From the NCBI GenBank assembly GCA_004321885.1, contig SCQK01000015.1:1-31763 (forward strand): a stretch of 31,763 nucleotides of DNA, written 5' to 3'. The notes under the pieces are model-generated. The model worked only from the letters and a program-made list of their open reading frames with translations, was not told where the DNA came from and made no database searches. Each line of letters starts with the position of its first letter. Position 1 is the stretch's first letter. This DNA is from Patescibacteria group bacterium. GTDB lineage: Bacteria; Patescibacteriota; Patescibacteriia; Magasanikbacterales; GWA2-37-8. The position numbers and the translations under genes are program-made. Below are positions 2 to 29,355 of this stretch, piece by piece.

Positions 2-1600
2 ACCGAGGGCGGTAGCTGTGTCCAGCCCGGAAACCTGTGTCTGACAGGCCTTTCGTGCCTGTCCGGGTTCTGTGTGAAGCTCCCGCCCACCACCACGGAT
101 GGCGGGATCAAGATCGACGGCCCCAAGCCCGAGGCAGGAAAGACCCCCGGCACCGAGGGAGGCCTGTGCGTTCAGCCAGGCAATCTGTGCCTGTCGGGGC
201 TCAATTGCCTCTCGGGGTTCTGCGTGAAGCTCCCGGCCACGGCGGACAGCGGAGTCAAGACCGACACCGCCAAGACACCGGGGAGTGAGGGTGGGGCATG
301 TGTGAATGGCAATCAGTGCCTGTCTGGGCTGATCTGCCTGTCGCAGATCTGCGTCAAGGCGCCGTCCACGTGCAACACCGACGTGGATTGCAACGACAAC
401 AACGAGTGCACTGCTGACACGTGTGTGAACTTCGGCGGGACGTTCGGCAAGTTGTGTGTGACGTTCCCCGGAGACCCCTCGTGCCGACCATGCACCACGG
501 ACGCGGATTGCGGCGACAGCAACCCCGTCACGACCGACAAGTGCGTCGTCGCGAGCGGGAAGACCATGGGCAAGTGTCAGTACACGGCTTCCGGCGTGAC
601 GAAGTGCACGCCGGGCAACTCGCCCGTGGAGTGCGGCGACGGTATCGCCTGCACCACCGACAACTGCAATCAGGACGGGTCCTGCTCGCACACGTTTGGC
701 GCCAACTGCCCGTGCGCGAAGGACTCGGACTGTAATGATAAGAACTCTTGCACCAGCGACACCTGCAACACGGGGACCGGCAAGTGCGTCTTCACGCCTG
801 CCACGGGGTGCAAGGAGTGCATGAAGCTGGAGGACTGCGGCGGGGCTCTCTCCCGCGTGACTTCGCCCATTAGTTCGTCTGGCGCGGATTGCGCCGCGAA
901 CTCCTGCGTGAAGAACGTTGGGGACGTGGTGGGCAAGTGCGCCACCACGTTGCAGCCGGCGTGTGTGCCCTGCAACAGCCCCACCAACTGGCCCGCGTGT
1001 TCGTACTGGTCCTCGTGTTGGGTTTGCGACCCGACCGGAACCGGCAAGTACGAATGCGGGCCGGACCCAAAGGTGGCCGGGTGCCCGACTGGCCTGCCCT
1101 GGCCCCCGCCTGCCCAGCCCCCGACCCCGTTGTGCTCGTCCAATGCGGACTGCAAGGACTACGCGGGCGGCACGTGCGCGACTGGCGGGTTCTGCGTCTA
1201 CACGCTCGGCGGAGGCAACTCCGTCATCAGCGTGAAGGTGCCGGCCGCCGGCAAGGTGCACCTGTGGGTTGCCAACAAGGAGCTCACGGGTGTCGGGAGC
1301 GCGGGCACGATTCTCAACTTCCAGGTCTCAAGCGCAGACCTTTGCGCCTGGGGCTTTGATGTAAATATTGAAGACGGGTCCAACAAGTGGTGGGGTTGCG
1401 ACCTGCCCAGCCAGTCGAAGTCGAGCACCGACCTTCGGCTGGGTGGCGTGGGGAGCAACTCAAACCTCCTCTGCGTCGGCACGGCAGCCGCTTGCGGACC
1501 AAGCAAGTGCTACCTGTTGACCAGCGACCCGACCGCGTGTGGCGGCAAGGGCGGCGAGGGCAATATCAAGTGCCCCAAGACCGCTCTCGGCTGCCCGTAG
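2..1600 (+). CDS. 5'-truncated, secreted cysteine-rich repeat protein. The reading frame is open from the window edge, so the ATG at 74 is internal. About 150-nt near-identical tandem repeats lie at roughly 2-370, followed by several 'C-x-x-D-x-D-C-x-D-x-N-x-C-T-x-D-x-C' modules resembling Myxococcales-type Cys-rich (disulfide) repeats.
   Basis: The frame is continuous from nt 2 (TEGGSCVQPGNLCLTGLSCLSGFCVKLP...), and the same about 50-aa unit recurs three times at the DNA level. The sequence is very Cys-rich with regularly spaced Cys and Asp. GC is visibly much higher (about 60-65%) than in the rest of the window. The stop is at 1598-1600. Confidence 0.7.
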   Translation, partial: TEGGSCVQPGNLCLTGLSCLSGFCVKLPPTTTDGGIKIDGPKPEAGKTPGTEGGLCVQPGNLCLSGLNCLSGFCVKLPATADSGVKTDTAKTPGSEGGACVNGNQCLSGLICLSQICVKAPSTCNTDVDCNDNNECTADTCVNFGGTFGKLCVTFPGDPSCRPCTTDADCGDSNPVTTDKCVVASGKTMGKCQYTASGVTKCTPGNSPVECGDGIACTTDNCNQDGSCSHTFGANCPCAKDSDCNDKNSCTSDTCNTGTGKCVFTPATGCKECMKLEDCGGALSRVTSPISSSGADCAANSCVKNVGDVVGKCATTLQPACVPCNSPTNWPACSYWSSCWVCDPTGTGKYECGPDPKVAGCPTGLPWPPPAQPPTPLCSSNADCKDYAGGTCATGGFCVYTLGGGNSVISVKVPAAGKVHLWVANKELTGVGSAGTILNFQVSSADLCAWGFDVNIEDGSNKWWGCDLPSQSKSSTDLRLGGVGSNSNLLCVGTAAACGPSKCYLLTSDPTACGGKGGEGNIKCPKTALGCP

Positions 1601-7208: not shown

Positions 7209-8727
7209 GCCTGTCAATCATTCCCCTAAACCCACGCGAGCCCAAAAAGACGATGGTGTCTTCTTTTTGGGCTGTCTTTTTTAAATAAGCGACCAGTGCG
7301 TCGTCGTCCGGCATGAATTTCGCGTTGTTGTGCGTTTTGGAAATAATTTTGGCCAGTTTGGCGCCATTCATAAGCTCGTTGGTTGTCTCCCCCTTGATAA
7401 GGGGGAGATTCACTACCACACCAAAATTTTTGGTGTGGTAGTGAAGAGGGGGTAATTTTAATTTCGTAAGCGCGGGAACAATTACTTCGTTGGCATTGGC
7501 AAAAGCGTGAGCGTACGATGGGGCCGAGGCCGCGCTCCGGCCGCCGGTATTGGGTTCAAATACCGCGTAGATTTTTCCCTTATAAATTTGGCGCAAAGTG
7601 GCGAGGGTTGACTTGGCTTTGGCCGGCGAGTGGGCGATGTCGTCGTAGACATCGGCGCCGCTTGCTTGTCCGCGTTTTTCCAGCCGCCGCTTCAAGCCGT
7701 CAAAAGTTTTAATAGCTGAGAGAATTTTTTCCGGCGCGATGCCGATTGCCGAGGCCAGCGCGAACACCCCGCACAAATTTTGCGCCATAAATTCGCCGAG
7801 CATGGGCGAGGAAACTTTATAAATTTTTTTCCCGTGTCGCAGTTCAAATTTTATGCCGCTGCCGCTCTGGCTAATTTTACCGTATTGGTAGTCGCATCGT
7901 TCAGCTTTGCCATACGTTATTGTCATTGCGAGGCCGTTTGCGGCCGAAGCAATCCCATACGTATTATTAGTAGGAGATTGTTTCGCTGCGCTCGCAATGA
8001 CACTTAAAACCTTCTCATCATCAGCGCACGCCACTATTAGTCCATGTTTTGGTATGGAAGCGATCAAATTTTCAAACGCGTCAAAATAGCTTTCTGCGGT
8101 GGGATAAATATCAGCGTGGTCCCAGCTGATGGAAGCGAGGAGCAGGTGAGTGGGGGAGTAGTGGGAAAATTTTGGTCGCGCATCCCAGCGGGCTGATTTG
8201 TACTCGTCGCCTTCTATCACGCTCCACCCCTCTTTTTTTCCGCTGGCTCCATAGTCCCCCGCAGGGGGCTGTGGAGCCAAACTGCCCATACTCGCCGATT
8301 CAAACCCGCTTATCGCCAGACCGCCGAACATGTAACTCGGCGCGAAATTGGCTTGCGTCAAAATCCACGAGAGCAAAGCCGCGATTGTCGTCTTGCCGCA
8401 GGTGCCGGCGCAGACGATGGAGTTTTGTTTCACGAAATATTCAGCCAATACCTCGGGATATGATTTGTATCTCAATTTTTTTTCCTGCGCCGCCAGCCAT
8501 TCAGGGTTTTGCGAACCGGCCACATTACCCACCACCACTAAATCCGGAGAGTCCATGCGCTCCGGATGCCAGCCCGGGTAAAATGCCACACCCGCAGATT
8601 TCAACCTCGTGGAAACCGGCGGGAAAAAGCCAACGTCACTGCCAGTCACTTTCCATCCGGCTTTCTTAAAAGCAACAGCAATCCCGCTCATTCCCACCCC
8701 GCAAATTCCGATAAAGTGAACATGCAT
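7177..8727 (-). CDS. Mur ligase of the MurC/Mpl family (UDP-N-acetylmuramate:L-alanine ligase or murein peptide ligase). It carries an in-frame GC-rich palindromic insert.
   Basis: The N-terminus 'HFIGICGVGMSGIAVAFKKAGWKVTGSD...YPPVST' is MurC/Mpl-like, with the YPPxST pattern resembling Mpl. Mur ligase middle and C-terminal domains follow. Nucleotides 7386-7456 encode 'KLPPLHYHTKNFGVVVNLPLIKGE' from a palindromic element. Confidence 0.8.
   Translation of the reverse strand: MHVHFIGICGVGMSGIAVAFKKAGWKVTGSDVGFFPPVSTRLKSAGVAFYPGWHPERMDSPDLVVVGNVAGSQNPEWLAAQEKKLRYKSYPEVLAEYFVKQNSIVCAGTCGKTTIAALLSWILTQANFAPSYMFGGLAISGFESASMGSLAPQPPAGDYGASGKKEGWSVIEGDEYKSARWDARPKFSHYSPTHLLLASISWDHADIYPTAESYFDAFENLIASIPKHGLIVACADDEKVLSVIASAAKQSPTNNTYGIASAANGLAMTITYGKAERCDYQYGKISQSGSGIKFELRHGKKIYKVSSPMLGEFMAQNLCGVFALASAIGIAPEKILSAIKTFDGLKRRLEKRGQASGADVYDDIAHSPAKAKSTLATLRQIYKGKIYAVFEPNTGGRSAASAPSYAHAFANANEVIVPALTKLKLPPLHYHTKNFGVVVNLPLIKGETTNELMNGAKLAKIISKTHNNAKFMPDDDALVAYLKKTAQKEDTIVFLGSRGFRGMIDRLISPRQPPQQ
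7920..8000. repeat. A 12-bp perfect inverted repeat 'tgtcattgcgag / ctcgcaatgaca' with a 57-nt spacer inside the Mur-ligase gene. The 'gtcattgcga(g)' half-site recurs at about 13332 and 28598.
   Basis: The arms are at 7920-7931 and 7989-8000, and the spacer contains the small hairpin ggccgtttgcggcc. The same 10-11-mer is seen in the intergenic region at 13332-13343 and at the annotated start of the 28597 ORF. Confidence 0.5.
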
Positions 8728-8745: not shown

Positions 8746-9498
8746 CTATTGTTTTAGTATCTTCTTTAGCTCCTCCAAATTCCTCTTCCACTCCTTCCCG
8801 TCAAACCATTCCAGTCCATTAAACTGTAATTTATAGACATCGGCCGGGCGCTGGGCCGAGCCGATATACACGTATTTTTTTCCCTCCACCTTCGCGTGCA
8901 AAATCGCTTTTTGCATCATGCCCAGGCCCAGGTCTTTTTGTTTGGATTCAAGGTCGTAAAAAGGATAGCTGTAATGCAAGATATTTTTTGTTTCAAAACA
9001 AATGCAGTAGCCCAATACCCCCTCCCCCGTCCTCCCCCTAAGAGGGAGAGGACTACCAGCGGTATTTCCTTCCCCTTTTAGGGGAGGGGCAGGCCACCAC
9101 ACCAAAGATTTTGGTGTGGTGGCAGGGGGTGGGGTATAAATCAATAACAAATTAAAGTTGCTTTTTGCCGGGTCAGTCAGCATCTCTTTTATTTTTTGTG
9201 CGGAGAAAATTTTCGGTCCAAATTTTTTTTCGTAAAAATCCTTGCCCATCTTGTGCACGCGCCAGTCATAATCAGAGTAGGGGAGAGGGGCCGCGTCCAG
9301 TTCAAAATTTTTCGTATGGCTCAAAATGCGCCGGTTCTCGCTGTTTAGAATAAATTTGCCCAAATCAATGCGCACACTGCGCGTTTGATTCATATCGCCT
9401 TTGCCCGTGCGCGTAAAAACAAAACCCTCACTGTAAAGTTTTTCTACATTTTCATCCGCGAAATCAGAAATTGTTTTCTTGTTCCAAGATAGATACAT
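8746..9498 (-). CDS. ATE/Bpt-family (arginyl-/leucyl-tRNA-protein transferase-like, ATE_C domain) aminoacyl transferase. It carries a large in-frame palindromic-element insert.
   Basis: An 'GFVFTRTGKG...MNQTRSVRIDLGKF' segment resembles the ATE 'GWRRSG...QT..IR...F' region. The C-terminus 'YSYPFYDLESKQKDLGLGMMQKAILHAKVEGKKYVYIGSAQ' matches the ATE_C pattern Y-x-FYD-[PL]...SLG...I..AK..G..Y.Y[IL]G. Nucleotides 9010-9135 encode a Pro/Gly-rich 'TPPPATTPKSLVWWPAPPLKGEGNTAGSPLPLRGRTGEG' stretch. Confidence 0.55.
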   Translation of the reverse strand: MYLSWNKKTISDFADENVEKLYSEGFVFTRTGKGDMNQTRSVRIDLGKFILNSENRRILSHTKNFELDAAPLPYSDYDWRVHKMGKDFYEKKFGPKIFSAQKIKEMLTDPAKSNFNLLLIYTPPPATTPKSLVWWPAPPLKGEGNTAGSPLPLRGRTGEGVLGYCICFETKNILHYSYPFYDLESKQKDLGLGMMQKAILHAKVEGKKYVYIGSAQRPADVYKLQFNGLEWFDGKEWKRNLEELKKILKQ

Positions 9499-9534: not shown

Positions 9535-10656
9535 TTAGTTCATTGATATCCAGACAGCCAAAATGACCATAAACGCGTGCATCAGCCAAAAGCGCATCAC
9601 GATTTTTTCCTCGCTCCAGCCCTTGAATTCAAAATGGTGATGAACCGGCGCCATCTTGAACAGCCGCCGTCCCAGCAAGCGCCTAAAACACACCTGCAAA
9701 ATTACCGATACAATTTCCACGTAAAAAATAAATCCAAGCAGGGGAATGAGCAGGGTGCGGTTTATGGCAATGCCGTTTATGGCCACCAGGGCCCCCAGCC
9801 CCAGCGCGCCCACGTCGCCCATCTGAAAACGCGCCGGTTTTACGTTGAAATAAGTATAAGCAATCAAAGCGCCGGCCACCGTGCCGTTTAGGAGTGTAAA
9901 CGATTCGCGTCCGGCTGTCCAGCTCATTACCATCAGGCCCAAAAAGGTGATAATCATGGCGCCGCCGGCCAGACCGTCCAGCCCGTCGGCGATGTTGACC
10001 GCGTTGGCCGTAAACATCACCGCAAAAATCACCAGCGGAATAATCCACCAGCCGATTGGTATCTGCCCCAGCACCGGGGTCCAGATGGAATGCCAGTGCT
10101 CGCCCAGCTTGTAATAAATCCACCAGGCCGGAATGGCGCCGGCTACAAATTGAAAGAGTAGTTTTTCGTGCACCTGGATGCCGCGCCCCGGATGCGAGCC
10201 AAAGGCGGAAACAGCGCGTTTGTAAAAAGCCCAAGGCAAACTTAAAACATACCAAACCCGCGTCCGCCAAAATTTGTGCACCCGTATCAAAGTAAGCGTC
10301 TGTTTCAAAGTGCGCTCCCGCCGTGGCTTGCCGAAAATATTCAGCAAATCATCGGCCGCGCCCAGAAGCGCCGACACGGCCATGGCGCCGATGGGCACAT
10401 AGGTGCTTTCGCGGTTCCAATTCCAAATCAGCGTGATAATCGTAACCGTGGCTATCACCAGCAGTCCGCCCATTATCGGCGTGCCGGCTTTGCATCCGCG
10501 GTCGCCTTTCATTGTAAAATCAAATTCAGCGCGGCGCGTTATTTTATACTTGTACAAAAATTTCGTCAGCAAAGGCGCCCAAATAAACGCGCCCAGCGCC
10601 GAGAATATTAAGTAAAGCAAGGCTGTTTGTATTAAGTCTGGTGAAAACATATTCAC
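9535..10656 (-). CDS. mraY: Phospho-N-acetylmuramoyl-pentapeptide transferase MraY.
   Basis: An 'NAVNIADGLDGLAGG' motif and the 'APVHHHFEFKGWSEEKIV' motif are present, and the protein is a multi-TM. The start as listed is GTG at 10654-10656; an ATG lies 2 codons downstream (10648-10650). Confidence 0.9.
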   Translation of the reverse strand: MNMFSPDLIQTALLYLIFSALGAFIWAPLLTKFLYKYKITRRAEFDFTMKGDRGCKAGTPIMGGLLVIATVTIITLIWNWNRESTYVPIGAMAVSALLGAADDLLNIFGKPRRERTLKQTLTLIRVHKFWRTRVWYVLSLPWAFYKRAVSAFGSHPGRGIQVHEKLLFQFVAGAIPAWWIYYKLGEHWHSIWTPVLGQIPIGWWIIPLVIFAVMFTANAVNIADGLDGLAGGAMIITFLGLMVMSWTAGRESFTLLNGTVAGALIAYTYFNVKPARFQMGDVGALGLGALVAINGIAINRTLLIPLLGFIFYVEIVSVILQVCFRRLLGRRLFKMAPVHHHFEFKGWSEEKIVMRFWLMHAFMVILAVWISMN

Positions 10657-10660
10657 AGTT

Positions 10661-10723
10661 TGTCATGCTGAACTTGTCACCACACCAAAATTTTTTGGTG
10701 GTGGTGACAAGTTCAGGATGACA
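10661..10723. repeat. About 63-nt near-perfect palindrome (extended A-type element) filling the spacer between the NlpC/P60-like stop and the mraY start.
   Basis: The sequence is tgtcatgctgaacttgtcaccacaccaaaa | ttttttggtggtggtgacaagttcaggatgaca. The arms are complementary except for 1-2 positions. The core 'caccacaccaaa-tttggtg(g)tggtg' is shared with 4 intragenic copies. Confidence 0.8.
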
Positions 10724-10724
10724 G

Positions 10725-11564
10725 TTAAAATTTTAGCCGTCTGATTTCCAAAGTTTTCGCTTGCTTGGCTTCCAAAAACGTTTCGTTGGCTTCGCCCGTT
10801 TTGCCCAACTCAACCCACTCCTGCCCCAGCAATCCGGCTTTTGGATTCACGAGCCGGATAAATCCTTCGCTCACCCCGTGCCCGTATTTACCCTCACAGC
10901 CCCAGGCGCGGGCGCAGCCGTATCTAATAAACCCGCCGTCCGTTTCGGTAATAATCAAAATATGGTTGCGGTCGCGCCGCTGACCGGTGCGCAACATCAC
11001 AATCACGTCTCCGGCGCGCGCGTTTTCCAGCTTCACTTTTTCCGTATTCTCGTCGCTCGCGTAGGTACTCACGGAAATATTTTCCATTGGCCGCAATTTG
11101 GCGACAAGCCAGCGCCAAAAACGCGCCGGCGAAACCACGCGCAATCGCTTCAGCAAATTCACGTTTTTCGTTTCCAAAAAATGTTGCGCCAGCACGCGCG
11201 TGACAAAGCCCGAACAGTCCACGCCCAGCCCGTTATCAATCAAAAATTTGCGGATATCGCGCGCGACCTCTTCGCCGGCGCCGTGCTGCTCACCACCGCC
11301 GCCAGGCGGGGCCCCGCTCTGGCGGTGGTGCAAACAACAGCCCTCGTGGTCAAAGAGCTGTTTGTGGTATTGCAAAGAAATAATCTGCGCCTCTTCCGCG
11401 ATATCGCGCGGCGAACCCTTGCCAACAAGCACAGACAGCTGGCCGCGCCGGCCCCGGCGCGCGTTGTTAAAATACGGACAGCGCACATTGCCCGCGCCGC
11501 GAAAAGGCAGAGACAAATAATCATTTATGGTTCTTAGCGCCGACGGCGATAGGGTGTTTGGCAT
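10725..11564 (-). CDS. NlpC/P60-family (papain-like) putative cell-wall hydrolase or amidase with an in-frame GC-rich insert.
   Basis: A 'GVDCSGFV' catalytic-Cys motif is present, and a downstream 'GDVIVM....RNHILII' segment matches the NlpC/P60 'GDLVFF...HVGIY' pattern. Nucleotides 11291-11330 (a C-type palindrome) encode 'GAPPGGGGEQHGAG'. Confidence 0.5.
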   Translation of the reverse strand: MPNTLSPSALRTINDYLSLPFRGAGNVRCPYFNNARRGRRGQLSVLVGKGSPRDIAEEAQIISLQYHKQLFDHEGCCLHHRQSGAPPGGGGEQHGAGEEVARDIRKFLIDNGLGVDCSGFVTRVLAQHFLETKNVNLLKRLRVVSPARFWRWLVAKLRPMENISVSTYASDENTEKVKLENARAGDVIVMLRTGQRRDRNHILIITETDGGFIRYGCARAWGCEGKYGHGVSEGFIRLVNPKAGLLGQEWVELGKTGEANETFLEAKQAKTLEIRRLKF

Positions 11565-11580
11565 AATGTCATTCCCCCGA

Positions 11581-13423: not shown

Positions 13424-14023
13424 ATGAAAAACGAAATAAAAGAAATAGAAAAAGACTTAGAATTTGTAAAAAATATTTATATAAAACTTCTAACGATATT
13501 GCCCAGTTTTAATATTACTGATAGCAAAATTTTGCCTTATGGCTTAAAAGCGCACACTAGATCGGTAAGTTGGTTAGTTGAGCAAGTTATTACACAGCAA
13601 ACTAAATTCAATGCAAAGAAACTTGATTTAGATGAAGTTAATTTTGACTTCCCAGATACCTCACTACATGATTGCGAAATTATTTATAAAGGGAGAAGTT
13701 ATTTTATAAATGTTAAAATTCACAATATTGGAAGCAAAGAAAATAAAAATGATATTTCTGCGGTAGAAAAACTTTATTTTCAATACAGTGTTAATAAAAA
13801 TTATACCTTAATATATGCTTGCTTTGGCATTAAATTTGAAAATATAAAAATAAATTTTGTTAAAGATTATTTAGAAGTTTTCTCGCCACAGTTTCTACCA
13901 ATTTATGTGAATCCTCGAAATGACAAAATTCAAGCCACCTATAGACATGATAAAGTATACAGAACGCGAGATGAATTTCTAAAAATGTTAAAAGAAAAAT
14001 CAAAAAGTATTATTTTAAAATAG
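13424..14023 (+). CDS. Putative type II restriction endonuclease, the R subunit of an AT-rich R-M islet.
   Basis: The 199-aa ORF has extremely low GC (about 20%). It lies 2 nt upstream of, and is co-oriented with, a beta-class DNA methyltransferase. No recognisable family motif was found, which is typical for REases. The assignment is by context. Confidence 0.45.
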   Translation: MKNEIKEIEKDLEFVKNIYIKLLTILPSFNITDSKILPYGLKAHTRSVSWLVEQVITQQTKFNAKKLDLDEVNFDFPDTSLHDCEIIYKGRSYFINVKIHNIGSKENKNDISAVEKLYFQYSVNKNYTLIYACFGIKFENIKINFVKDYLEVFSPQFLPIYVNPRNDKIQATYRHDKVYRTRDEFLKMLKEKSKSIILK

Positions 14024-14025
14024 CT

Positions 14026-14847
14026 ATGAATAAAATTTTTAACGAAGATATTTTATTAGGAATAGATAAAATAGAAGACAATTCTATTGATTTAATTTTA
14101 ACTGATCCTCCTTATTGTTTAGGCAAAGATTATGGCAATGATTCTGATCAAAAATCATCTGAGGATTATCTGAACTGGACATATCAATGGATTGATGCGG
14201 TTTTGCCTAAATTAAAAAATAGTGGAAGTTTTTATATTTTTTTAAGCTGGCAATATTCACCAGAAATTTTTTGTTATTTAAAAAAGAAATTACGAATGGT
14301 CAATGAAATTATTTGGGATAGACGAGTGCCAAGCATGGGCGGTTCTACTAGAAAATTTTCATCTGTCCACGACAATATAGGTTTTTTTGTAAAAAATAAT
14401 AATTATTATTTTGATTTAGATAGCATTAGAATTCCCTACGATGAAGAAACTAAAAAAGCAAGAACTCGATCAATTTTTGTTGGAAAAAAATGGTTAGAAA
14501 TGGGCTACAATCCAAAAGATTTATGGAGTACACCAAGAATACACACACAAGACCCTGAAAGAGAAAATCACCCAACCCAAAAACCTTTAGAAATAATTGA
14601 ACGAATGGTAAAAGCAAGTTGTCCTAAAAACGGAATTGTTTTTGATCCATTCATGGGAACCGGAACAACTGCTATCGCTTGCCTATCAAGCAATAGGCAA
14701 TATGTAGGATTTGAAATAAATAAAGATTATCACAAACTAATAACAAATCGAATCAAGAAACATAATAGTTGCCCGACTTTATTTCAACAACAGAAGCAAA
14801 AACAAGGTAATTTGACTCAAGGCATTCACCTATGCACGATAAATTGA
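14026..14847 (+). CDS. DNA methyltransferase, beta-class amino-MTase (N4-cytosine or N6-adenine), type II R-M system M subunit.
   Basis: An N-terminal 'DLILTDPPYCLG' (motif IV, DPPY) precedes a C-terminal 'HPTQKPLEIIERMV...VFDPFMGTGTTAIA' (motif I/SAM binding), giving the circularly permuted beta-class order. The composition is AT-rich. Confidence 0.85.
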   Translation: MNKIFNEDILLGIDKIEDNSIDLILTDPPYCLGKDYGNDSDQKSSEDYLNWTYQWIDAVLPKLKNSGSFYIFLSWQYSPEIFCYLKKKLRMVNEIIWDRRVPSMGGSTRKFSSVHDNIGFFVKNNNYYFDLDSIRIPYDEETKKARTRSIFVGKKWLEMGYNPKDLWSTPRIHTQDPERENHPTQKPLEIIERMVKASCPKNGIVFDPFMGTGTTAIACLSSNRQYVGFEINKDYHKLITNRIKKHNSCPTLFQQQKQKQGNLTQGIHLCTIN

Positions 14848-15758: not shown

Positions 15759-15767
15759 AAAATCATT

Positions 15768-15860
15768 GTGTTTCTGAATGTGTTCTCGCTTTCCTCGGCC
15801 GCGAGGCCTCGGGCGTGGCGCTGTGGCGCCACAAGCCGCTGCGAACACATTCAGAAACAC
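15768..15860. promoter_or_regulatory. Large stem-loop between murB and hpf: an 18-bp perfect inverted repeat enclosing a 57-nt GC-rich self-complementary core. It is a candidate terminator, RNA structure or MITE-like element.
   Basis: The arm gtgtttctgaatgtgttc lies at 15768-15785 and gaacacattcagaaacac at 15843-15860. The core contains the sub-palindromes ggccgcgaggcc and ggcgctgtggcgcc. A T-run (caatttttatg) follows immediately before the hpf ATG. Confidence 0.6.
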
Positions 15861-15871
15861 AAACAATTTTT

Positions 15872-16231
15872 ATGCAAATACAAATAACCGGAAAGGGGAT
15901 AGAGCTGACAGACGCCATAAAGGATTACGTGGAAAAAAAGATGCTGGCTTTGGAAAAATTTTACGGCCGGATAATCCGCGCCGACGTGAGCGTGGGGGTG
16001 GAAAACCACCATCATCAAAAAGGAAAAATTTTCGTGGCCGAGTGCAAGTTGGAAGTGCCGGGCAAAGACTTGTTCGCCGGCAAAAATGAAAAAACTTTGT
16101 ATAAGGCAGTGGATAAAATCCGCGATTATCTGGAGGGCGAGCTGAAAAAACACAAGGTCAGATTGCAGGAAAAAAACCCCAAAGACAAGCGGCTCGTGCG
16201 CGCCAGCAAAGAATATCTTCCAGAAGAATGA
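15872..16231 (+). CDS. hpf: Ribosome hibernation promoting factor (short HPF/YfiA family).
   Basis: The translation 'MQIQITGKGIELTDAIKDYVEKKMLALEKFYGRIIRADVSV...' is the typical HPF N-terminus. The start is placed at the ATG at 15872. The longer track ORF from 15815 would read through the upstream hairpin. Confidence 0.8.
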   Translation: MQIQITGKGIELTDAIKDYVEKKMLALEKFYGRIIRADVSVGVENHHHQKGKIFVAECKLEVPGKDLFAGKNEKTLYKAVDKIRDYLEGELKKHKVRLQEKNPKDKRLVRASKEYLPEE

Positions 16232-18573
16232 AAGAGCAGGCAATAAAATTGATTAGGCGTTTTTGGCCGGCTGGCTATGGCTTGGTCGGCTCTTTTATTA
16301 TTTCCGCCGGCTGGAACTGGTATCACACCGCCCATCGTCCCCACTGGCGCATTATTCTCATCACGCTCGGCGTTTGGGTGGTTGTTTACGCAGGTTTTCG
16401 CGGATTCAAATGGCTTTATGCGTACTTTACGCGGCGCTTCCGCAGGCACGAGTTTTGGCAAAAGAATTTTTACGTTGTTTTAGACCAGCTTTATTTTATT
16501 TTCTCGCTTATTTTTTTGGTTTTTTTCTCGCGCGACGAAATCGTCTCGGCCCTCTACGCGCCCGTGATTTTTTTAATCTTTTATTGGCGCCTTGACCGGT
16601 ACCTCAAAAAGCACCCCGATGGCGGAATGTGGCGCCGCGTCGCGCGCGCGTTTTTTTTGTTCGGCTTTTTTATTTTTCTATTGATGGATGTTTTGCAATA
16701 TTTTGCTTTTCGTTTGTATATACTGGACCCAAACGCCAAAATTTTTAACATTGTTTTTTTCCGCGCTTGGGCCATGGCCATATTTTGGCTGGCTACATTT
16801 GCCGTCTGCGCCATCTGGTATCGCTTCACGCGCAAATGGCATCGCTACGCGCCACTCGGTTTTTGGGCGCTTTGCTTTGTCGTCTATGCCGCGCTGTGGG
16901 CGCTAAATGTAGGCGTGCTCTACTACTCGGGCTTGTACTTAAATCCGGCGCTTTTGGAACACGCCGAGGGCGGCGCCGGCGCCGGTTATCTTTCCACCGG
17001 CGTCAGCTATTTACTTTTCGCGTTATTGGCAGTAATGCTGGGTCTTTTCACTGTGCTATTTAAAAAAATCATGAAAGCGCACGGAAATTCGGCTACGCGC
17101 CACTGGAATTATTACCATTTCGCCCTCATTGCTTTGGCGCTGTTTACTTTTTTGGCCGTGGCCAGCTTCAAAACCACTCCCGAATATCTTATCATCCGTT
17201 CTTTTTATAAATACTTCCGCGGCGAAACCGAAAAAATAGAATTGAACCAGGCGGTCAAGACAAAATTAGAGCGATTTGGTCTGAAATACAACACGGACCA
17301 GTTCTACGTCGCGCACAAGGATACGGTTTATCGCTCAAATCCTCCACTCCTCGCCCCAAAATTCTCTACCAAAAAACCCAACCTCGTCATCGTTTTCCTG
17401 GAGTCCTTTTCCAGTCGCCTCACCGGCGTTTATAATCCCAAATACAAAGAGCTTACCCCGGGCCTCAACAAAATGGCCGCGGACAAAAATACCACTGTTT
17501 TCAAAAACTACTACAATGCCAGCACTCCGTCCATCACTGGCATTATTTCTTTGCTTTGCTCGTACCTCACGCCATTCGGCCACAATGAAATTCAAAACGA
17601 AAACCGCTTGCAAAGAACTGGCCTGATGTGCCTGCCGCGCGCCCTGAAAAAAAACGGCTACAAGGATTTTTTGTATATGACCGCGGTGAGCGAGGAATTC
17701 GCCAACAAGGGCTCCATTGCCAAAAGCATGGGCATAGAAAAAATGCTGGGCCAGGAAGAGCTGAAAAAATACATCAAAGCTCCGCCCCTGGCCTGGGGCT
17801 ACAGCGACCACCAGATGTTTCCGTTGTTTTTTGATTTGATGCCAAAACAGCGCGAACCGTTTTTGATGATGCTGGCCACAGTGGACACGCACCCGCCGTT
17901 TACCACGGCCAAGGATATTTTGAAATATAAAAGCGGGGGCAGCAACATGCTCAACACTTTTCACACCACCGACGACGGCTTCTCCAAATTTTGGGACCAG
18001 TTCAAGGCCAGCCCGTATTACGAGAATACAATTTTGATTGCCGTGGCCGACCACGCGGTTTTTCCGGTGGCCTACGACAAAAAGGGTTTTCCCGACGAGT
18101 ATGGCAAGCGCACTTTTTACGACGAAAATTTGTTCCTGCTCTACGCGCCTGAAAATGTTCTGCCCAAAGAGGTCAAGACGCTTTCGTCGGGGATTGATTT
18201 CACGCCAACGATTTTGCAAATGCTTGGGATAAACAAGGTGCCAAACGCGTTTGAAGGACATTCTATTTTTGACGACCGCGCCAAATTTCCAAACATCCTC
18301 GGCATGCACGAGTTCGGGCTGTATATAAACCAGGCGATTTCTCAAAATCCTACCCCTATTAGGGGGAGGGCGGGCCACCACACCAAAGAATTTGGTGTGG
18401 TGGCAGGGGAGGGGGTTGAACGTCGCACCGACTACGCGGTCCCATCGCATCTGGAATGCGCCGACGCCGAGGTCGGCGCTTCATCCAGCACCCCGCTCAC
18501 CCTTTGCGAATTTTTGCATTTCTACAAATGGAAACGCCAGATGATGGAAGAGGGCCGGTTTTGGGAGAAGTAA
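16228..18573 (+). CDS. LtaS/MdoB-like sulfatase-domain (alkaline-phosphatase superfamily) membrane protein. The N-terminal multi-TM is followed by an extracytoplasmic phosphotransferase domain, with an in-frame GC-rich insert near the C-terminus.
   Basis: About 300 aa of hydrophobic helices precede 'PNLVIVFLESFSS...NASTPSITGIISLLCSY...ATVDTHPPF', which is sulfatase/LtaS-like. Nucleotides 18353-18480 (B and A palindromes plus the gcgccgacgccgaggtcggcgc hairpin) encode 'PTPIRGRAGHHTKEFGVVAGEGVERRTDYAVPSHLECADAEVGASS'. Confidence 0.6.
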   Translation: MKEQAIKLIRRFWPAGYGLVGSFIISAGWNWYHTAHRPHWRIILITLGVWVVVYAGFRGFKWLYAYFTRRFRRHEFWQKNFYVVLDQLYFIFSLIFLVFFSRDEIVSALYAPVIFLIFYWRLDRYLKKHPDGGMWRRVARAFFLFGFFIFLLMDVLQYFAFRLYILDPNAKIFNIVFFRAWAMAIFWLATFAVCAIWYRFTRKWHRYAPLGFWALCFVVYAALWALNVGVLYYSGLYLNPALLEHAEGGAGAGYLSTGVSYLLFALLAVMLGLFTVLFKKIMKAHGNSATRHWNYYHFALIALALFTFLAVASFKTTPEYLIIRSFYKYFRGETEKIELNQAVKTKLERFGLKYNTDQFYVAHKDTVYRSNPPLLAPKFSTKKPNLVIVFLESFSSRLTGVYNPKYKELTPGLNKMAADKNTTVFKNYYNASTPSITGIISLLCSYLTPFGHNEIQNENRLQRTGLMCLPRALKKNGYKDFLYMTAVSEEFANKGSIAKSMGIEKMLGQEELKKYIKAPPLAWGYSDHQMFPLFFDLMPKQREPFLMMLATVDTHPPFTTAKDILKYKSGGSNMLNTFHTTDDGFSKFWDQFKASPYYENTILIAVADHAVFPVAYDKKGFPDEYGKRTFYDENLFLLYAPENVLPKEVKTLSSGIDFTPTILQMLGINKVPNAFEGHSIFDDRAKFPNILGMHEFGLYINQAISQNPTPIRGRAGHHTKEFGVVAGEGVERRTDYAVPSHLECADAEVGASSSTPLTLCEFLHFYKWKRQMMEEGRFWEK

Positions 18574-20337: not shown

Positions 20338-21171
20338 TTGTCGGGTATGTCAAAAATTTTGGAAAATATTAAGCAGCGACCATATTTTTCGAAGAACAAT
20401 TTTGTCCTGTACAGGGACAACTGTTTAAATATTCTGGGAAAATTACCAGAGAATTCGGTTGACATGATTTTTGCAGATCCTCCTTATTTGCTTTCGAACG
20501 GCGGAATGACGTGCAATGGGGGGAAAATGGTAAGCGTTGATAAAGGGCAGTGGGATGTGAGTAACGGTTTAAAAAAGGACTGGGAATTTCATTTGAGCTG
20601 GATTAAAGCGTGTCATCGAGTATTAAAGCCATGCGGAACAATTTGGATAAGTGGGACCTATCACTCCATTTATCAATGCGGATTCGCTTTGCAGGTCAAC
20701 AAATTTCATATTTTGAATGATATTGCCTGGTTCAAACCGAATGCGTCTCCAAATTTGAGTTGTCGATTTTTTACTGCTAGCCACGAAACGATTATTTGGG
20801 CTCGGAAAGATAAAAAAGGAAAACACAAATTTAATTATGAGCTAATGAAAAACAGAGACTGGACGGGTGATTTTATAAAAAAACCGAATCTTCAAATGCG
20901 AAGTGTTTGGGCTATTTATCCTCCCAAAAAAGAAGAAAAGATTTTTGGTAAGCACCCCACTCAAAAACCGATAGATTTATTGGTTAGGATTATCCTCGCA
21001 AGCACAGATAAGGGCGACATTGTTTTGGACCCATTTACCGGCTCTTCAACTTCAGGGCTGGCGGCATTTTTGAATGAAAGAAAATTCGTTGGTATTGATT
21101 TGGAAAAAAAATATCTAGATATATCCATTAAACGTTTCAGCAGTTTTAAAAAAGAAGCCCCTCATTTATGA
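20338..21171 (+). CDS. Orphan beta-class DNA amino-methyltransferase (N6-adenine or N4-cytosine).
   Basis: An 'DMIFADPPYLL' (DPPY) motif is N-terminal, and 'HPTQKPIDLLVRIILAST..GDIVLDPFTGSSTSG' is C-terminal. The islet is low-GC (about one-third). No intact REase ORF is adjacent. Confidence 0.85.
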   Translation: MSGMSKILENIKQRPYFSKNNFVLYRDNCLNILGKLPENSVDMIFADPPYLLSNGGMTCNGGKMVSVDKGQWDVSNGLKKDWEFHLSWIKACHRVLKPCGTIWISGTYHSIYQCGFALQVNKFHILNDIAWFKPNASPNLSCRFFTASHETIIWARKDKKGKHKFNYELMKNRDWTGDFIKKPNLQMRSVWAIYPPKKEEKIFGKHPTQKPIDLLVRIILASTDKGDIVLDPFTGSSTSGLAAFLNERKFVGIDLEKKYLDISIKRFSSFKKEAPHL

Positions 21172-21303: not shown

Positions 21304-23616
21304 ATGGCGCAAAAAGTTTTCACGACGACAAAAACCCCACCCCCTGCCACCGCCGCGAGGCGGGGCCCCGCCGTGGCGGTGGCCCCTCCCCTAAAAGGGG
21401 AGGGGGCCAACTGGATTCCCGCCTCCGCTGGAATGACAACTTTAGAAAAATTAGCCCGGATGTTGCGGGCCCTGATATTCGCCTCGGTGGAAGCCGGCCA
21501 ATCAGGCCATCCGGGCGGCAGCAGTTCCAAGGTGGAGCAATTTTTAACAATGCTCCTCGGCGGTTTTGTGGCTTTTGACCCGGCCAATCCTAAAAATCCC
21601 GGGCGCGACCGCGTGGTGTGGAGCTCTGGCCATTGTACGCCTTTGCTCTACGGCGGTCTGGCCATGCTCTATGAAGCCATGCGGCGCGAGGGCAGGCAAT
21701 TTTCCAAAGCCGCTGTGGGCGCCGTGTTTCCCGAAGACCTGGCCAGCTTTCGCCAGACCCACGGCTTGCCCGGGCATGCTGAAAGCGTGTATCCGCTGGT
21801 GGATGTTTCCACCGCCTCATCAGGCCACGGGCTGTCAGCCGCGGTTGGGATAGCCATGGCACACAAATCCAGTGGTCTTGATACAAAAATTTGGGTGCTC
21901 ATGGGTGATGCCGAAACTGAAGAAGGCATCAGCTACGAAGCGCGCAATGTGGCCGCGGCTTCGGGCCTAAACAATGTTATTGTTTCTTTGGATTACAACG
22001 GCTTTGGCATAGACGGCCCCATCACCGAGGCCATGGTTTCCAGCCCGGGCGCGCAGTGGTCGGCCCTGGGCTGGAATGTGCTCATAGCCGACGGCCATGA
22101 TTTTTCCGCCCTGGCCGCGGCCTACGCTAAAGCACAGCGCGCGGACAAGCCCACGGTGGTGGTTTGCCGCACCATCAAAGGCAAGCATTATGGGGCGCGG
22201 GAAAACAGCCATTCTTCGCACGGCACGCCCTTGCCTCATGACGAGTATGCCGCGGCAGTCAAAAAATTAGGGTTTGATATAAAAGGAGAAAAGGGCAAGG
22301 CCATCGCGGACATAGAAAAAATTATAGACCAGCTGGGCGAACGCGAGGCTGATTTTATTTCCAAAGCGCTCAAAAAATGCGCGGCCAAAATCAAACCCGA
22401 AGAAGAGCTGGTAAAAAAAATGAAAACCGCCCTGCCGGGCAGGCCGTTTAAGGGCGTTCTGAATGTGCAGCGGCCGAAAAAATTGTCGCCCGAACTGGTG
22501 TTTGCTCCGGGCGCCAATGTCAGCGGGCGCAAGGCGGCCCAGGCCTGGTGCAAATGGCTGATGACCCAGAGCGCGTTTGTGTTTGCCGGCGCCGGCGACG
22601 TCAGCAAGTCCGTACTCACTGCCGCGGCGGAAAACGTGTACGGCGTTATCGGACCGGCCAATCCGCTGGGCCGCGGCATTCGCTTTGGCATTGCCGAGGC
22701 CAACATGGGCATGGTTGCCAGCGCGCTGTCGCAGGAAATTTTGCCCGGCGGCATTCGGCCCTCTTGTATTTTTGGCACCTACAGCGTGTTCGCCCCCATG
22801 ATGGCCAACAGCATTCGCATGTCTTTAATTGACAGAAAAATAAATAAAGACCGGCGCGGATTTTTTGTGGCTTTGGCGTCTCACGACGGACCAGAAACAG
22901 GCGAAGACGGCCCCACACATCAGGGTCTTTACTGGATGTCGCTTTTTGACGCCTATCCGGGCATAAAAGTGTACAAGCCCGCCGACGCCAACGAAACAAT
23001 AGAAATGCTTTTTCACGCCCTCCAAATCGGCGAGCCGATAGTTTTGTCTTTGCCGCGCGCGGACTGGCCCGTGATAGACCGCGCTTGCGCGCCGGCGGCC
23101 AGCGAAGCGAATAACGGCGCGTATGTTTTTAAGGATTACACCCCCTCCTCGCCACCACACCAAAGCATTTGGTGTGGTGGCGAGCCTCCCCCTTCTAAAG
23201 GGGGAGGGAAAACGGCTGCTCCACAAATAAGGGGAGGGAAACGTATCGTGCTCGCCGTCTGCGGAGGCCAGCTCTTGCAAAACACGCTGGCCATACTGCC
23301 AGACTTGGAAAAGAAAAAATTGAACGTCAAAATTATCGTGGTAACGGCGCCCGAGCTGTTTGAGGATTTGCGCGCTCGCGACCCGAAAAAAGCGCGCGCT
23401 ATTTTAAGCGACGAAGAACGCGCCGACATAATCACCCTGCACAACGGCTGGCCCGGATTTTTGCGCCGATTTTTACTGCCGGAAAATTACGCCGCGCGCG
23501 AAATCGGAGTCGCGGATTTTTTGGTTTCCTGCAAACCGGCCGACGCCTACGACATCGCCGAACTTTCGCCCAAAGACCTAATAAAAAAAATCCTAAAAAA
23601 TGTCAAAGATAACTAA
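21304..23616 (+). CDS. tkt: Transketolase (TPP-dependent). The likely true start is the ATG at 21433, because the first 43 codons of the long ORF lie in C- and B-type palindromic elements. It also carries an internal in-frame A/B element.
   Basis: Motifs 'SGHPGGSSS', 'GDAETEEGISYEA' and 'GEDGPTHQG' are transketolase hallmark motifs. Nucleotides 21346-21405 are palindromic repeats. Nucleotides 23150-23240 (A plus B elements) encode 'PSSPPHQSIWCGGEPPPSKGGGKTAAPQIRGGK'. Confidence 0.85.
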   Translation: MAQKVFTTTKTPPPATAARRGPAVAVAPPLKGEGANWIPASAGMTTLEKLARMLRALIFASVEAGQSGHPGGSSSKVEQFLTMLLGGFVAFDPANPKNPGRDRVVWSSGHCTPLLYGGLAMLYEAMRREGRQFSKAAVGAVFPEDLASFRQTHGLPGHAESVYPLVDVSTASSGHGLSAAVGIAMAHKSSGLDTKIWVLMGDAETEEGISYEARNVAAASGLNNVIVSLDYNGFGIDGPITEAMVSSPGAQWSALGWNVLIADGHDFSALAAAYAKAQRADKPTVVVCRTIKGKHYGARENSHSSHGTPLPHDEYAAAVKKLGFDIKGEKGKAIADIEKIIDQLGEREADFISKALKKCAAKIKPEEELVKKMKTALPGRPFKGVLNVQRPKKLSPELVFAPGANVSGRKAAQAWCKWLMTQSAFVFAGAGDVSKSVLTAAAENVYGVIGPANPLGRGIRFGIAEANMGMVASALSQEILPGGIRPSCIFGTYSVFAPMMANSIRMSLIDRKINKDRRGFFVALASHDGPETGEDGPTHQGLYWMSLFDAYPGIKVYKPADANETIEMLFHALQIGEPIVLSLPRADWPVIDRACAPAASEANNGAYVFKDYTPSSPPHQSIWCGGEPPPSKGGGKTAAPQIRGGKRIVLAVCGGQLLQNTLAILPDLEKKKLNVKIIVVTAPELFEDLRARDPKKARAILSDEERADIITLHNGWPGFLRRFLLPENYAAREIGVADFLVSCKPADAYDIAELSPKDLIKKILKNVKDN

Positions 23617-27024: not shown

Positions 27025-27051
27025 GAAATGGTCGCCTGAGGCGACCATTTC
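27025..27051. terminator. Perfect 12-bp-stem hairpin between the nucleotidyltransferase gene and the blaI-like gene.
   Basis: The sequence is gaaatggtcgcc tga ggcgaccatttc. No T-tract follows, so it may be a terminator or a regulatory structure. Confidence 0.3.
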
Positions 27052-27092: not shown

Positions 27093-27476
27093 ATGCGGCC
27101 ATCATCGGGTTTGGGAACACTGGAGCGAAAAATAATGGAAACAATCTGGGACGCCGGCGACTCGGCATCGGTGCGCGCTGTTTTTGATTGCCTGAAAACG
27201 AAAAAAAAGATTTGCTATACCACGGTGATGACTATAATGACCCGCTTGTGCGAAAAAAACATGCTTAGGCGCGCCATGGGCGAAGACGGCGCGTATATTT
27301 ACAGCGCCGCGCAAAGCAAAAAAGATTTTTTGAGATCGGTGTTTAAGCGCACCGTGGGCGCCCTGGTGGGGCAATTCGGCGAGCTGGCCGTGGCCCAGTT
27401 TATAGACGCGGTGGAATCCAGCAACCTGAAAAACTTAAAAGAGTGGCGCGAGAAATTGAAGAAGATTCTGAAATAA
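27093..27476 (+). CDS. BlaI/MecI/CopY-family winged-helix transcriptional repressor.
   Basis: An 'LGTLERKIMETIWDAGDSASVRAVFDCL....YTTVMTIMTRLCEKNMLRR' segment matches the Penicillinase_R fold. The protein is 127 aa. An M56-peptidase gene lies immediately downstream. Confidence 0.8.
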   Translation: MRPSSGLGTLERKIMETIWDAGDSASVRAVFDCLKTKKKICYTTVMTIMTRLCEKNMLRRAMGEDGAYIYSAAQSKKDFLRSVFKRTVGALVGQFGELAVAQFIDAVESSNLKNLKEWREKLKKILK

Positions 27477-27500: not shown

Positions 27501-28529
27501 ATGAGCGAAAATAATTTTAAGGCAAAAGCGAACGCGCTGTTCGCGTTTATAGTTATCGTCGGCCTGATATTTAGCGCCGCGATGTTTAGGCTGGCGCTAA
27601 AATACATTCCAACGTTTGGCAATTTCCTAACCTCGGCCAGGCATGGGTTGGACGCGCTTTGCGGTTGCGGGGCGCATTTAAGTTTTTCCACCCACCCCTA
27701 TATCTGGAGCGGCCTGCTGGCGGTCGGAATTATTATAAGCGGATTCTTTGTGGCGGCCGGAGCGCGCGGGCTAGGGTATTTTTTTAGAAATAGAAAGTAT
27801 TTAAAATCGCGCCTGGCCCGGGCCGTAAAGCCGGCCGGCAAACTATCGCGCGCGGCGCGCGCCCTGACCCTGGAAGACAAGGTCCGGCTGGCGCCCTCCG
27901 CGGCCGTGGAGGCTTTTTGCTGCGGTTTTTGGCGCCCAAAAATTTACGTTAGCGGCGGCCTGGCCGCGCGGCTGAATCTAACGGAGTTGGTATCCGTATT
28001 ATCGCACGAAAAACAGCACCTGCTGTCGCGCGACCCGCTCAAAATTTTTATTGCTAATCTGGCGCGCAAAATATTTTTCTTTGTGCCCGGATTAAAAAGC
28101 CTGGTCAAGCGATTTTCGCTTTACAGCGAACTGTCGGCCGACGCGCGCGCCACCGCCGGTTTTAAGAATAAAATTTATCTGGCCTCGGCCCTGCTCAAAA
28201 TAATTAAAACAAAAGAAAATTTCGCCTGGCAGACCCCGTTTGAAGCATTGCCCCTGTCCGGGTTTGCCAATCTTACCGGAGAACGCATCAGCCAACTGGC
28301 TGATGGAAAAATTGCGCGACACCGCCTTGCTCCAATCAAATCATTCTTCTTATTTTTCGGCGCCGCAGGAACCCTGATTGTGCTGACGTTTGTCCCGATG
28401 CTGTTGCGCGCCGACTGGCTAGACCGCACTGCCAAAGAGACATGCTCGGCTTTTTCGCATACGCACGAGACCCATGCCGCGTCAAAGTCGTGCGCGCAAT
28501 CATCCCGGTACGTGGCAACGAATCCTTAG
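27501..28529 (+). CDS. BlaR1/MecR1-like M56-family membrane metalloprotease (signal transducer), lacking a C-terminal penicillin-binding sensor domain.
   Basis: The N-terminus has TM helices. The zinc motif 'SHEKQHLLSRD' (HExxHxxxxD) is characteristic of BlaR1/M56. The protein is 342 aa with a C-terminal TM and tail only. Confidence 0.75.
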   Translation: MSENNFKAKANALFAFIVIVGLIFSAAMFRLALKYIPTFGNFLTSARHGLDALCGCGAHLSFSTHPYIWSGLLAVGIIISGFFVAAGARGLGYFFRNRKYLKSRLARAVKPAGKLSRAARALTLEDKVRLAPSAAVEAFCCGFWRPKIYVSGGLAARLNLTELVSVLSHEKQHLLSRDPLKIFIANLARKIFFFVPGLKSLVKRFSLYSELSADARATAGFKNKIYLASALLKIIKTKENFAWQTPFEALPLSGFANLTGERISQLADGKIARHRLAPIKSFFLFFGAAGTLIVLTFVPMLLRADWLDRTAKETCSAFSHTHETHAASKSCAQSSRYVATNP

Positions 28530-28596: not shown

Positions 28597-29355
28597 ATGT
28601 CATTGCGACTATTATATATGGCAAACTTAAATAGGTTAACGCGGCCGCGCCAATACTTGGCGGTCGTAAATATAATTGCTCTAACGGTTTTTCTTTTTGC
28701 GACGGTCACCAATCAGGTGGTTATCGCCTCCACCAGCAGCGCCCTGGGCGGCACGCGTTATATGGCCAAACTGCTTTCCCTGCTTGGCGGAGGGCTGAAA
28801 CTTTCGGGCGACGCGGCCGCGGACGCGATGAAGTTAGTGCTCTCGGCCGGCGTGCCCGCGGTGTACGGCGCGGAAATGGGTGTGGACTTTGAACATGTCC
28901 AGCCGGCGATAGACAAAATGAAAATCTACGACCCGACCTACGGGGCGCAAAAAATCGTTCTCGCCGGCGATGACCTGAAACGTTATATAGAAATCGCCCT
29001 GAAAATTTCCTGCGAATATTGTTGTGGAGCCAAAAGCATTATCCGCGAAAACGGCGAAGCGGCCTGCGGTTGCGCCCACTCGCAAGCCATGCGCGGGTTG
29101 GCCGCTTACCTGCTCAAAAACCACTCGCAAATGAGCAATGATGAAATTTTGCGCGAACTGGCGCGCTGGAAAGGCATGTATTTTCCCAAACAGATGATGC
29201 AGAAAATGAGCGGGCATCTGCAAAGCGGAAGTTTCACGCCCGATACGGCCGCGCTGATTATGGGAATGAAACTGCCCAAGTATGGCCAAACCAACGGCGC
29301 GGCCCCGCTTCCGTCCGAAATTAAAGACATGCCTGGAATGGTGGGGGGATGCTAA
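28597..29355 (+). CDS. Membrane-anchored Cys-cluster protein (CEYCCGAK...CGCAHS) with a flexible C-terminal linker ending in MPGMVGGC. An alternative start lies at 28618.
   Basis: An N-terminal hydrophobic anchor 'YLAVVNIIALTVFLFATV' is present, with central Cys motifs. The C-terminal octapeptide is shared with the next ORF. It is the first gene after the candidate operator. Confidence 0.5.
   Translation: MSLRLLYMANLNRLTRPRQYLAVVNIIALTVFLFATVTNQVVIASTSSALGGTRYMAKLLSLLGGGLKLSGDAAADAMKLVLSAGVPAVYGAEMGVDFEHVQPAIDKMKIYDPTYGAQKIVLAGDDLKRYIEIALKISCEYCCGAKSIIRENGEAACGCAHSQAMRGLAAYLLKNHSQMSNDEILRELARWKGMYFPKQMMQKMSGHLQSGSFTPDTAALIMGMKLPKYGQTNGAAPLPSEIKDMPGMVGGC

Follow-up and report, generated by a model that had tools for sequence, protein, structure and literature searches.

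In the stretch of DNA analyzed here (the window: all 31,763 nt, or 31.8 kb, of contig SCQK01000015.1 from a Patescibacteria group bacterium), a 63-nt near-perfect palindrome separates a conserved upstream gene from mraY, an essential gene of peptidoglycan synthesis. Most probably this palindrome is selfish repeat DNA, a nested chimera of a TGTC-tagged repetitive extragenic palindrome (REP) dimer and a second hairpin repeat, designated the A-core, rather than a dedicated mraY control element. By comparison of sequences, its termini are shown to be homologous to a REP family and its core to a local repeat; likewise, the element is shown to be missing from most orthologous junctions and to have been acquired independently in other lineages. 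Family membership, lack of conservation, and repeated independent gain together argue for a passenger. The components of the junction are as follows (no strand is assigned to the repeats).

10661..10723: whole palindrome, 63 nt, probable chimeric REP-derived insertion
10661..10677: left terminal module TGTCATGCTGAACTTGT, consisting of a TGTC tag, the 5′ half of an 8-bp unit stem (ATGCTGAA, "G-type"), and the modal 5-nt loop CTTGT
10678..10706: central A-core hairpin CACCACACCAAAATTTTTTGGTGGTGGTG, 29 nt, where the REP dimer would have its inner half-stems and spacer
10707..10723: right terminal module ACAAGTTCAGGATGACA, reverse complement of TGTCATCCTGAACTTGT ("C-type")
10725..10727, minus strand: TAA stop of the upstream gene, 1 nt off the hairpin base
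10648..10650, minus strand: ATG annotated as the mraY start, 10 nt off the hairpin base, with an alternative GTG at 10654-10656

The two arms of the inverted repeat (10661-10690 and 10694-10723; 30 nt each, with 3 nt between them) are 87% complementary without gaps, and pair nearly end to end if one 1-nt bulge is allowed. The arm sequence is unique within the window, where 0 further occurrences were expected (100 shuffles), and the hairpin is the longest of all those found in a hairpin scan of the 31.8 kb. As minus-strand RNA, it is predicted to fold at -47.3 kcal/mol, compared to -17.8 +/- 3.0 kcal/mol for dinucleotide shuffles (z = -9.74). The initial annotation had described a 63-nt near-perfect palindrome at these positions, giving an mRNA hairpin with an arm of about 30 bp before the mraY start, and both points were borne out; its coordinates for the upstream stop and for the ATG and GTG starts agree with the open reading frames (ORFs) and with the length of the public protein P0001. 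It had also stated that the palindrome exactly fills the spacer. The palindrome does sit between stop and start, but it takes 63 of the 74 nt that separate the upstream stop from the mraY ATG, with 1 nt left over next to the stop and 10 nt next to the start. Chimeric reads can produce long perfect palindromes, and a fold-back chimera from metagenome assembly would be one such artefact; the chance that it accounts for this palindrome is negligible, in that the two arms do not match perfectly (they differ by a C/G mismatch and a 1-nt indel), the gene order on both sides agrees with 12 independent assemblies, and homologous elements occur at the same junction of one relative (L005) and in at least 120 contigs.

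In each arm, the outer 17 nt (TGTCATSCTGAACTTGT) correspond to the termini of a very widespread TGTC/CGTC-tagged REP head-to-head dimer, and both palindrome ends read TGTCAT[C/G]CTGAACTTGT. Together, the left and right modules form a heterotypic C/G end pair, typical of the TGTC-tagged family. The left module, from which the 3′ half-stem of the unit is missing, is identical to canonical dimer ends in at least 120 metagenome contigs. These dimers were recovered by scanning metagenome contigs with the pattern TGTCATSCTGAA-N20-50-TTCAGSATGACA, and their loci span a GC content of 29-66%. Among the matches listed (122 copies, hereafter the listed copies), 79 have a canonical form in which two inverted units, each reading TGTC|ATSCTGAA|5-nt loop|TTCAGSAT|C, are separated by a variable spacer. 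Within a unit, the S bases compensate each other in 79/79 and 77/79 of these canonical copies. Heterotypic pairs of units outnumber homotypic ones by 93 to 29 in the listed copies, and the window copy is also heterotypic. Positions 13-17, which the search pattern left free, read CTTGT, the modal loop, at both ends of the window copy, with divergence from position 18 onward. The dimers are mostly intergenic, as the longest spanning ORF has fewer than 60 codons for 77 of 105 listed copies; nine listed copies lie inside ORFs of at least 150 codons.

The family extends well beyond the window. A 25-nt unit, CGTC-ATCCTGAA-CTTGT-TTCAGGAT-CCA, is 100% identical in Sphingobium and Novosphingobium plasmids, and a complete dimer is present in the Treponema replicon pTS1. 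Four relatives with the same mraY gene order (L001, L002, L005, and L007) hold several TGTC-tagged copies, and textbook CGTC-1-like dimers occur in relatives as well (e.g., L001:4161-4248, with the tail CCA). A second TGTC-tagged palindrome (TGTCATTGCGAG...CTCGCAATGACA) lies in the window at 7921..8002; matches to TGTCATYSYGA at 27479 and 28598 were rejected as elements, not being palindromic. The combination of a foreign inner hairpin with conserved outer arms recurs in L189, L211, L232, L147, and L178. A phage vector is unlikely, given that the dimer was found in only two viral contigs and the A-core in none. Full-text searches for the DNA strings of the repeat returned unrelated primer matches only, and a literature search combining REP or MITE (miniature inverted-repeat transposable element) with Patescibacteria yielded no prior description.

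CGTC-tagged REPs have been described by Di Nocera, De Gregorio and Rocco (2013, BMC Genomics 14:522; PMC3733652). Each such unit carries at one end an unpaired terminal CGTC, often TGTC (or CCTC), and folds into its own 8-9-bp stem, the first two pairs of which are A-T, with 4-5-nt loops of a few recurrent types and a short unpaired CCA-like tail at the untagged end. The units occur mainly as head-to-head dimers with the tags outside, heterodimers prevailing in CGTC-2 and CGTC-3, and they are located near the 3′ end of the upstream ORF, with some intragenic and some inside repair genes. They are listed from five phyla, Patescibacteria not among them; sphingomonads have CGTC families, and the Rickettsia palindromic elements (RPEs) RPE-4 and RPE-6 are CGTC-4 and CGTC-1 repeats, respectively. 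No dedicated transposase is known for them (PMC3733652).

Several of these features are found in the window copy. It has TGTC at 10661-10664 and GACA at 10720-10723, with the tags pointing outward from a G-type left and a C-type right unit, and it belongs to a dispersed multi-copy family (at least 120 metagenome contigs, the second window palindrome, and the several copies in L001, L002, L005, and L007). The loop sequence CTTGT is kept at both ends, but the two loops pair with each other instead of looping. Of the unit stems, only the 5′ halves AT[G/C]CTGAA remain, the partner TTCAGSAT being missing from both units, and the position of the tail is occupied by the A-core. Complete unit stems with compensatory S positions are present in the L005 element, as in the 79 canonical copies, and tails are present elsewhere: CCA in the Sphingobium copy and at L001:4161-4248, and CTN or CCN in metagenome units. 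The canonical elements have in common with CGTC-2 the TGTC tag, an 8-bp stem starting with AT, a 5-nt loop, the head-to-head heterodimers, and the position by the 3′ end of the upstream ORF. In contrast, the window copy has lost the inner stem halves, tails, and spacer, with a foreign hairpin in their place, and its host phylum lies outside the five of that paper.

The foreign hairpin is the A-core (CACCACACCAAA-loop-TTTGGTGTGGTG), which forms the central 29 nt of the palindrome. As an alternative to regulation, the initial annotation had considered the spacer a landing site of its A-type element; this stands for the central 29 nt, but not for the outer 17 nt of each arm, which belong to the separate TGTC/CGTC-tagged REP family. 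A-core half-sites number nine in the window, versus 0.08 expected, and the window's five strongest hairpins all contain an A-core. The four further copies are all in-frame inside genes (no strand assigned):

7409..7445: A-core copy in the Mur ligase gene, within a 69-nt composite repeat (7386-7454)
9093..9123: A-core copy in the ATE_C-like gene, within a 40-aa insert (~9015-9135)
18374..18404: A-core copy inside the sulfatase-family ORF 16228..18573
23148..23184: A-core copy inside the transketolase ORF 21304..23616, where the composite repeat is inverted

The composite repeat, about 69 nt long, is present in the same four genes (7386-7454, 9067-9135, 18348-18416, and 23140-23206), in-frame in each. 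Its parts are a CCCCTnnnAGGGG hairpin, the A-core hairpin, and a G-rich tail; in these copies, the A-core is thus combined with G/C-rich CCCCT...AGGGG hairpins. More hairpins of the CCCCT...AGGGG kind are located at 1756-1776, 19943-19965, 21383-21405, and 23637-23686, and the ORFs of the PIF1-like helicase, the transketolase, and the P-type ATPase contain three of these.

Outside the window, full A-core palindromes occur in Moranbacteria, Saccharibacteria, Paceibacterota, and Giovannonibacteria genomes, mostly in intergenic positions among the matches listed. Since the scan pattern required only one full half-site and was too loose, only matches on both strands were counted as real; among those listed, all are in Patescibacteria or unclassified metagenome-assembled genomes (MAGs). 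Most of the loose-pattern matches (Nostoc and others) were rejected as unrelated CACCAAA...TTTGGTG hairpins. A 12-nt half-site conserved over distant Patescibacteria classes, and usually intergenic there, is what would be expected if the A-core were the binding site of a Patescibacteria-wide DNA-binding protein and the window copy an mraY operator. Such an operator is nonetheless highly improbable: four of the five window copies are in-frame within unrelated genes, one copy falls within a uvrA-like ORF of a Giovannonibacteria genome (L075:4973-4994), the genes neighboring A-cores have nothing in common, and none of 12 relatives has an A-core at its mraY junction.

Judged by its MraY homologues, the contig belongs to Patescibacteria, in the vicinity of Magasanikbacteria, and even the nearest relatives are only about 77% identical. 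The junction was compared across 12 syntenic relatives (L001-L008 and L237-L240), all of which keep the gene order [ATP-grasp/NUDIX]-[~270-aa gene]-mraY-[ATE_C-like]-[Mur ligase]. At the junction itself, they differ as follows:

L003, L006, L008: upstream gene and mraY overlap
L002, L004, L007, L237, L239, L240: spacer of 1-8 nt
L005: 60-nt palindrome (canonical dimer)
L001: 380-nt nested palindrome with a different TGTC element
L238: unrelated insert of about 450 nt

Thus, nine of the 12 relatives have a compact junction (overlap or a spacer of at most 8 nt) and no palindrome. Subtraction of the element from the window leaves the junction TTTTAA...AATATG, which resembles that of L004 (TTTTTAAAATATG) and L007. 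The L005 element (TGTCATCCTGAATTTATTTCAGGATC...GATGCTGAAACGAGTTCAGCATGACA) has the same two termini as the window element, with the same C/G asymmetry; the upstream gene of L005 reads into the element and ends at a TGA within it. In both genomes, a C precedes the element and CTGT follows 0-2 nt after it (window, 10724 and 10651-10660; L005, 1085 and 1146-1149). The entire L001 spacer (L001:2517-2908) is a palindrome, itself nested within longer AT-rich palindromes. When MraY and the upstream protein were concatenated for a tree, L005 paired with L003 (80% identity), a locus where the genes overlap and the element is lacking; the window is no nearer to L005 than to others, L005 being its nearest neighbor in only 7 of 200 bootstraps. 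One ancestral insertion common to the window and L005 was rejected on this basis. Because L005 groups with the element-free L003 and not with the window, the junction, as judged from these sequences, is separately occupied in the window, L005, and L001.

This distribution bears directly on whether the hairpin was selected as a cis-regulatory RNA structure. An attenuator or translation-coupling modulator, tuning MraY relative to the upstream cell-wall gene, had been suggested in the initial annotation, and a very stable hairpin seated exactly between stop and start, some palindrome at the junction in three of 13 lineages, and a start region that opens in the predicted fold when a ribosome sits on the stop would all accord with it. 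The suggestion nevertheless found no support and is improbable. The palindrome is lacking from nine of 12 syntenic relatives in which the mraY context is unchanged, the pattern that the initial annotation itself had named as speaking against regulation, so that a conserved mraY leader at the orthologous position is not seen. The three junction palindromes differ in sequence and were independently gained, and each of the two sequence modules is a generic repeat that turns up at unrelated sites, genes included. Neither a leader peptide nor an alternative pairing was found for the hairpin, and Rfam at gathering thresholds returned nothing but tRNAs, both for the window, where the palindrome had no match, and for ten loci bearing canonical elements.

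A strong stem-loop at a gene boundary could also be an intrinsic, possibly bidirectional, transcription terminator separating the upstream gene from mraY. Neither flank of the palindrome carries the T/U-tract expected of an intrinsic terminator or attenuator, on either strand, and a terminator and promoter scan of 10300-11700 was silent on it; moreover, the same modules lie inside long ORFs, and the corresponding genes of relatives are contiguous, so evidently co-transcribed. A terminator is therefore extremely improbable.

A passenger origin suggests the following course of events. A head-to-head dimer of TGTC-tagged REP units (of the CGTC superfamily, CGTC-2-like) would have landed in the few bases between the upstream stop and the mraY start. 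Later, in the window lineage, the A-core, abundant in this genome, would have replaced the inner half-stems and spacer of the dimer, giving one long nested hairpin; the order, dimer first and then core, is inferred. Insertion was probably tolerated because the relatives rely on adjacency or overlap of stop and start, and the folded hairpin would restore that adjacency by rejoining the stop (1 nt from the stem base) and the start (10 nt). A ribosome ending the upstream gene at its TAA would melt the stem base and expose the mraY start region, so that the ancestral stop-start coupling could survive. When a ribosome was modeled at the stop codon in a constrained fold, the 20 nt preceding the ATG went from a mean unpaired probability of 0.23 to one of 0.56. 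By analogy with other REPs, stabilization of the mRNA, or cutting by a double-strand RNase, may be among the side effects here.

Several observations weigh against regarding the palindrome simply as a REP-derived passenger. To judge from its sequence, the window copy is a derivative without unit-level hairpins and tails and no textbook member of the CGTC class, and its exact chimera is not repeated among the 122 sampled elements. A mobilizing enzyme for CGTC REPs is not known at all, and no transposase or HUH gene was found among the ORFs of the window. The window and L005 copies have the same flanks, C...CTGT, although apparently independent, and relatives at about 77% MraY identity are too distant to reveal a recent presence/absence polymorphism. 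Finally, a hairpin situated 10 nt from a start codon, with a modeled stability of roughly -42 to -47 kcal/mol, would almost certainly affect expression somewhat, and its secondary recruitment for mraY expression is possible.

Comparison with other known systems places the element among small palindromic repeats. REPINs are inverted REP doublets that, with their spacer, fold into one long hairpin as ssDNA or mRNA and form a replicative unit scattered in extragenic space (Bertels and Rainey 2011; PMC3116915). The window element has the same two-inverted-unit hairpin plan, whereas REPINs are GTAG-type and linked to RAYTs (REP-associated tyrosine transposases, IS200/IS605-like Y1 enzymes), no gene for which was found among the window ORFs. 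Chunjie-1 is, like the window element, a small palindromic non-autonomous element between co-transcribed genes, but it is 235 bp long, compared to 63 nt here, and the window element showed no consistent target duplication. MITEs are expected to have terminal inverted repeats of at least 10-15 bp and, outside these, a target-site duplication of 2-10 bp. The 17-nt inverted termini agree with the former, and CTGT flanks both the copy in the window and that in L005; across the wider family, neither a target-site duplication nor a CTGT preference was found, 85 of the 122 listed copies having no flanking direct repeat. RPEs are palindromic repeats lying in-frame in housekeeping genes of a small-genome bacterium, as do the other window copies; in contrast, the copy at the mraY junction is intergenic, and the sequences are unrelated to the longer RPE-1 family.

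The in-frame behavior of the other copies was delineated by aligning window proteins with their orthologues, whereby the extra protein segments of the window coincide with hairpins. The Mur ligase gene has three in-frame inserts: the composite repeat at 7386-7454, a GC hairpin at 8244-8279, and the TGTC-tagged palindrome listed here.

7921..8002, no strand assigned: TGTC-tagged palindrome, a 17-aa lineage-specific in-frame insert in the Mur ligase gene

The ATE_C-like gene (8746-9498) holds the 40-aa insert already noted at ~9015-9135, and the gene upstream of mraY has a 14-aa lineage-specific in-frame hairpin insert (11291-11330). At the same alignment position of the ATE_C-like gene, different palindromic in-frame inserts are present in the window, L001 (4774-4841), and L002 (6571-6670), with none in L003 and L004; the ATE_C-like gene of L007 holds a TGTC element (L007:6494), placed without alignment. 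This site could be a hot spot, a place of nested-palindrome turnover, or the sole tolerated loop. The in-frame insertion behavior resembles, by analogy, that of Rickettsia RPEs.

A broader proposal, tentative and rather doubtful at present, is that Patescibacteria host at least two active REP-like families, the pan-bacterial TGTC/CGTC type and the A-core (CCACCACACCAAA...TTTGGTGTGGTGG), that prefer existing hairpins or palindrome centers for insertion. If true, this would explain the nested palindromes in the window, L001, L189, L211, and L232, as well as the recolonized sites, namely, the mraY junction in three of 13 lineages and the ATE_C-like loop in at least three (with L007 a likely fourth). 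It would also make sense of how many in-frame inserts are seen in essential cell-wall genes and imply a hairpin-targeted mobilization mechanism without a known enzyme.

On the preferred reading, the hairpin before this essential peptidoglycan gene is repeat DNA and not a riboregulator, which removes a tempting lead; the palindrome is an ordinary kind of object, REP-derived, in an undescribed host group and an unusual chimeric form. The more interesting lead is the presence of REP-like palindromes in-frame in cell-wall genes, with the same Patescibacteria sites repeatedly colonized. CGTC-type REPs would thereby be extended to the ultra-small, gene-dense Patescibacteria, in which REP-like repeats are found both between translationally coupled genes and in-frame in Mur ligase, transketolase, P-type ATPase, and other genes, as RPEs are in Rickettsia. 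For annotation of MAGs from such genomes, REP-encoded peptide inserts and spurious small ORFs are to be expected. Given the repeated use of sites and the lack of a known CGTC transposase, these compact genomes may be useful for seeking the mobilizing mechanism.

The genes flanking the palindrome are both on the minus strand:

9535..10650, minus strand: mraY (phospho-N-acetylmuramoyl-pentapeptide transferase), Pfam PF00953, 100% identical to P0001
10725..11564, minus strand: conserved upstream gene, 279 aa, with a DCSGF motif, a weak NlpC/P60 match, and its own 14-aa in-frame hairpin insert (11291-11330)

The identity of mraY is supported by its match to Pfam Glycos_transf_4 (PF00953; E = 6e-26). 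Its ORF spans 9535..10656 on the minus strand, the first start being the GTG at 10654-10656, and the 371 aa of P0001 fit the ATG at 10648-10650. No clear Shine-Dalgarno sequence was found ahead of mraY. The NlpC/P60-like label given to the upstream gene by the initial annotation has a basis in a match to PF00877 (E = 0.002), but at 18.5 bits this falls below the cut-off of 23, and searching PDB sequences with a profile of the upstream protein returned nothing meaningful.

Elsewhere in the window, the ATP-grasp/NUDIX gene and murB, which adjoin each other in relatives, are separated by an AT-rich cassette (13424-14847) containing an ORF without a Pfam match and an N6/N4 DNA methylase; the cassette is probably a restriction-modification unit that was inserted here. 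Another methylase gene is located at 20338..21171. A 31-nt inverted repeat (15755-15785 and 15843-15873; 90% complementary, 57 nt apart) brackets the start of an hpf/S30AE-family gene (15815..16231), and the ORF 74..1600 (508 aa) begins with ~150-nt repeats (75% identical; window 2-240) encoding Cys-rich Dicty_CTDC-like modules. A perfect palindrome, TGCCTACTACATAATGTAGTAGGCA, with a TACA..TGTA core, is present at 28561-28585, just past a BlaR1-like gene (27501..28529) and ahead of the ORF 28597..29355, and a hairpin with 13-bp arms (27025-27051) lies upstream of a BlaI-like repressor gene (27093..27476). These two are likely BlaI/MecI-type operators.

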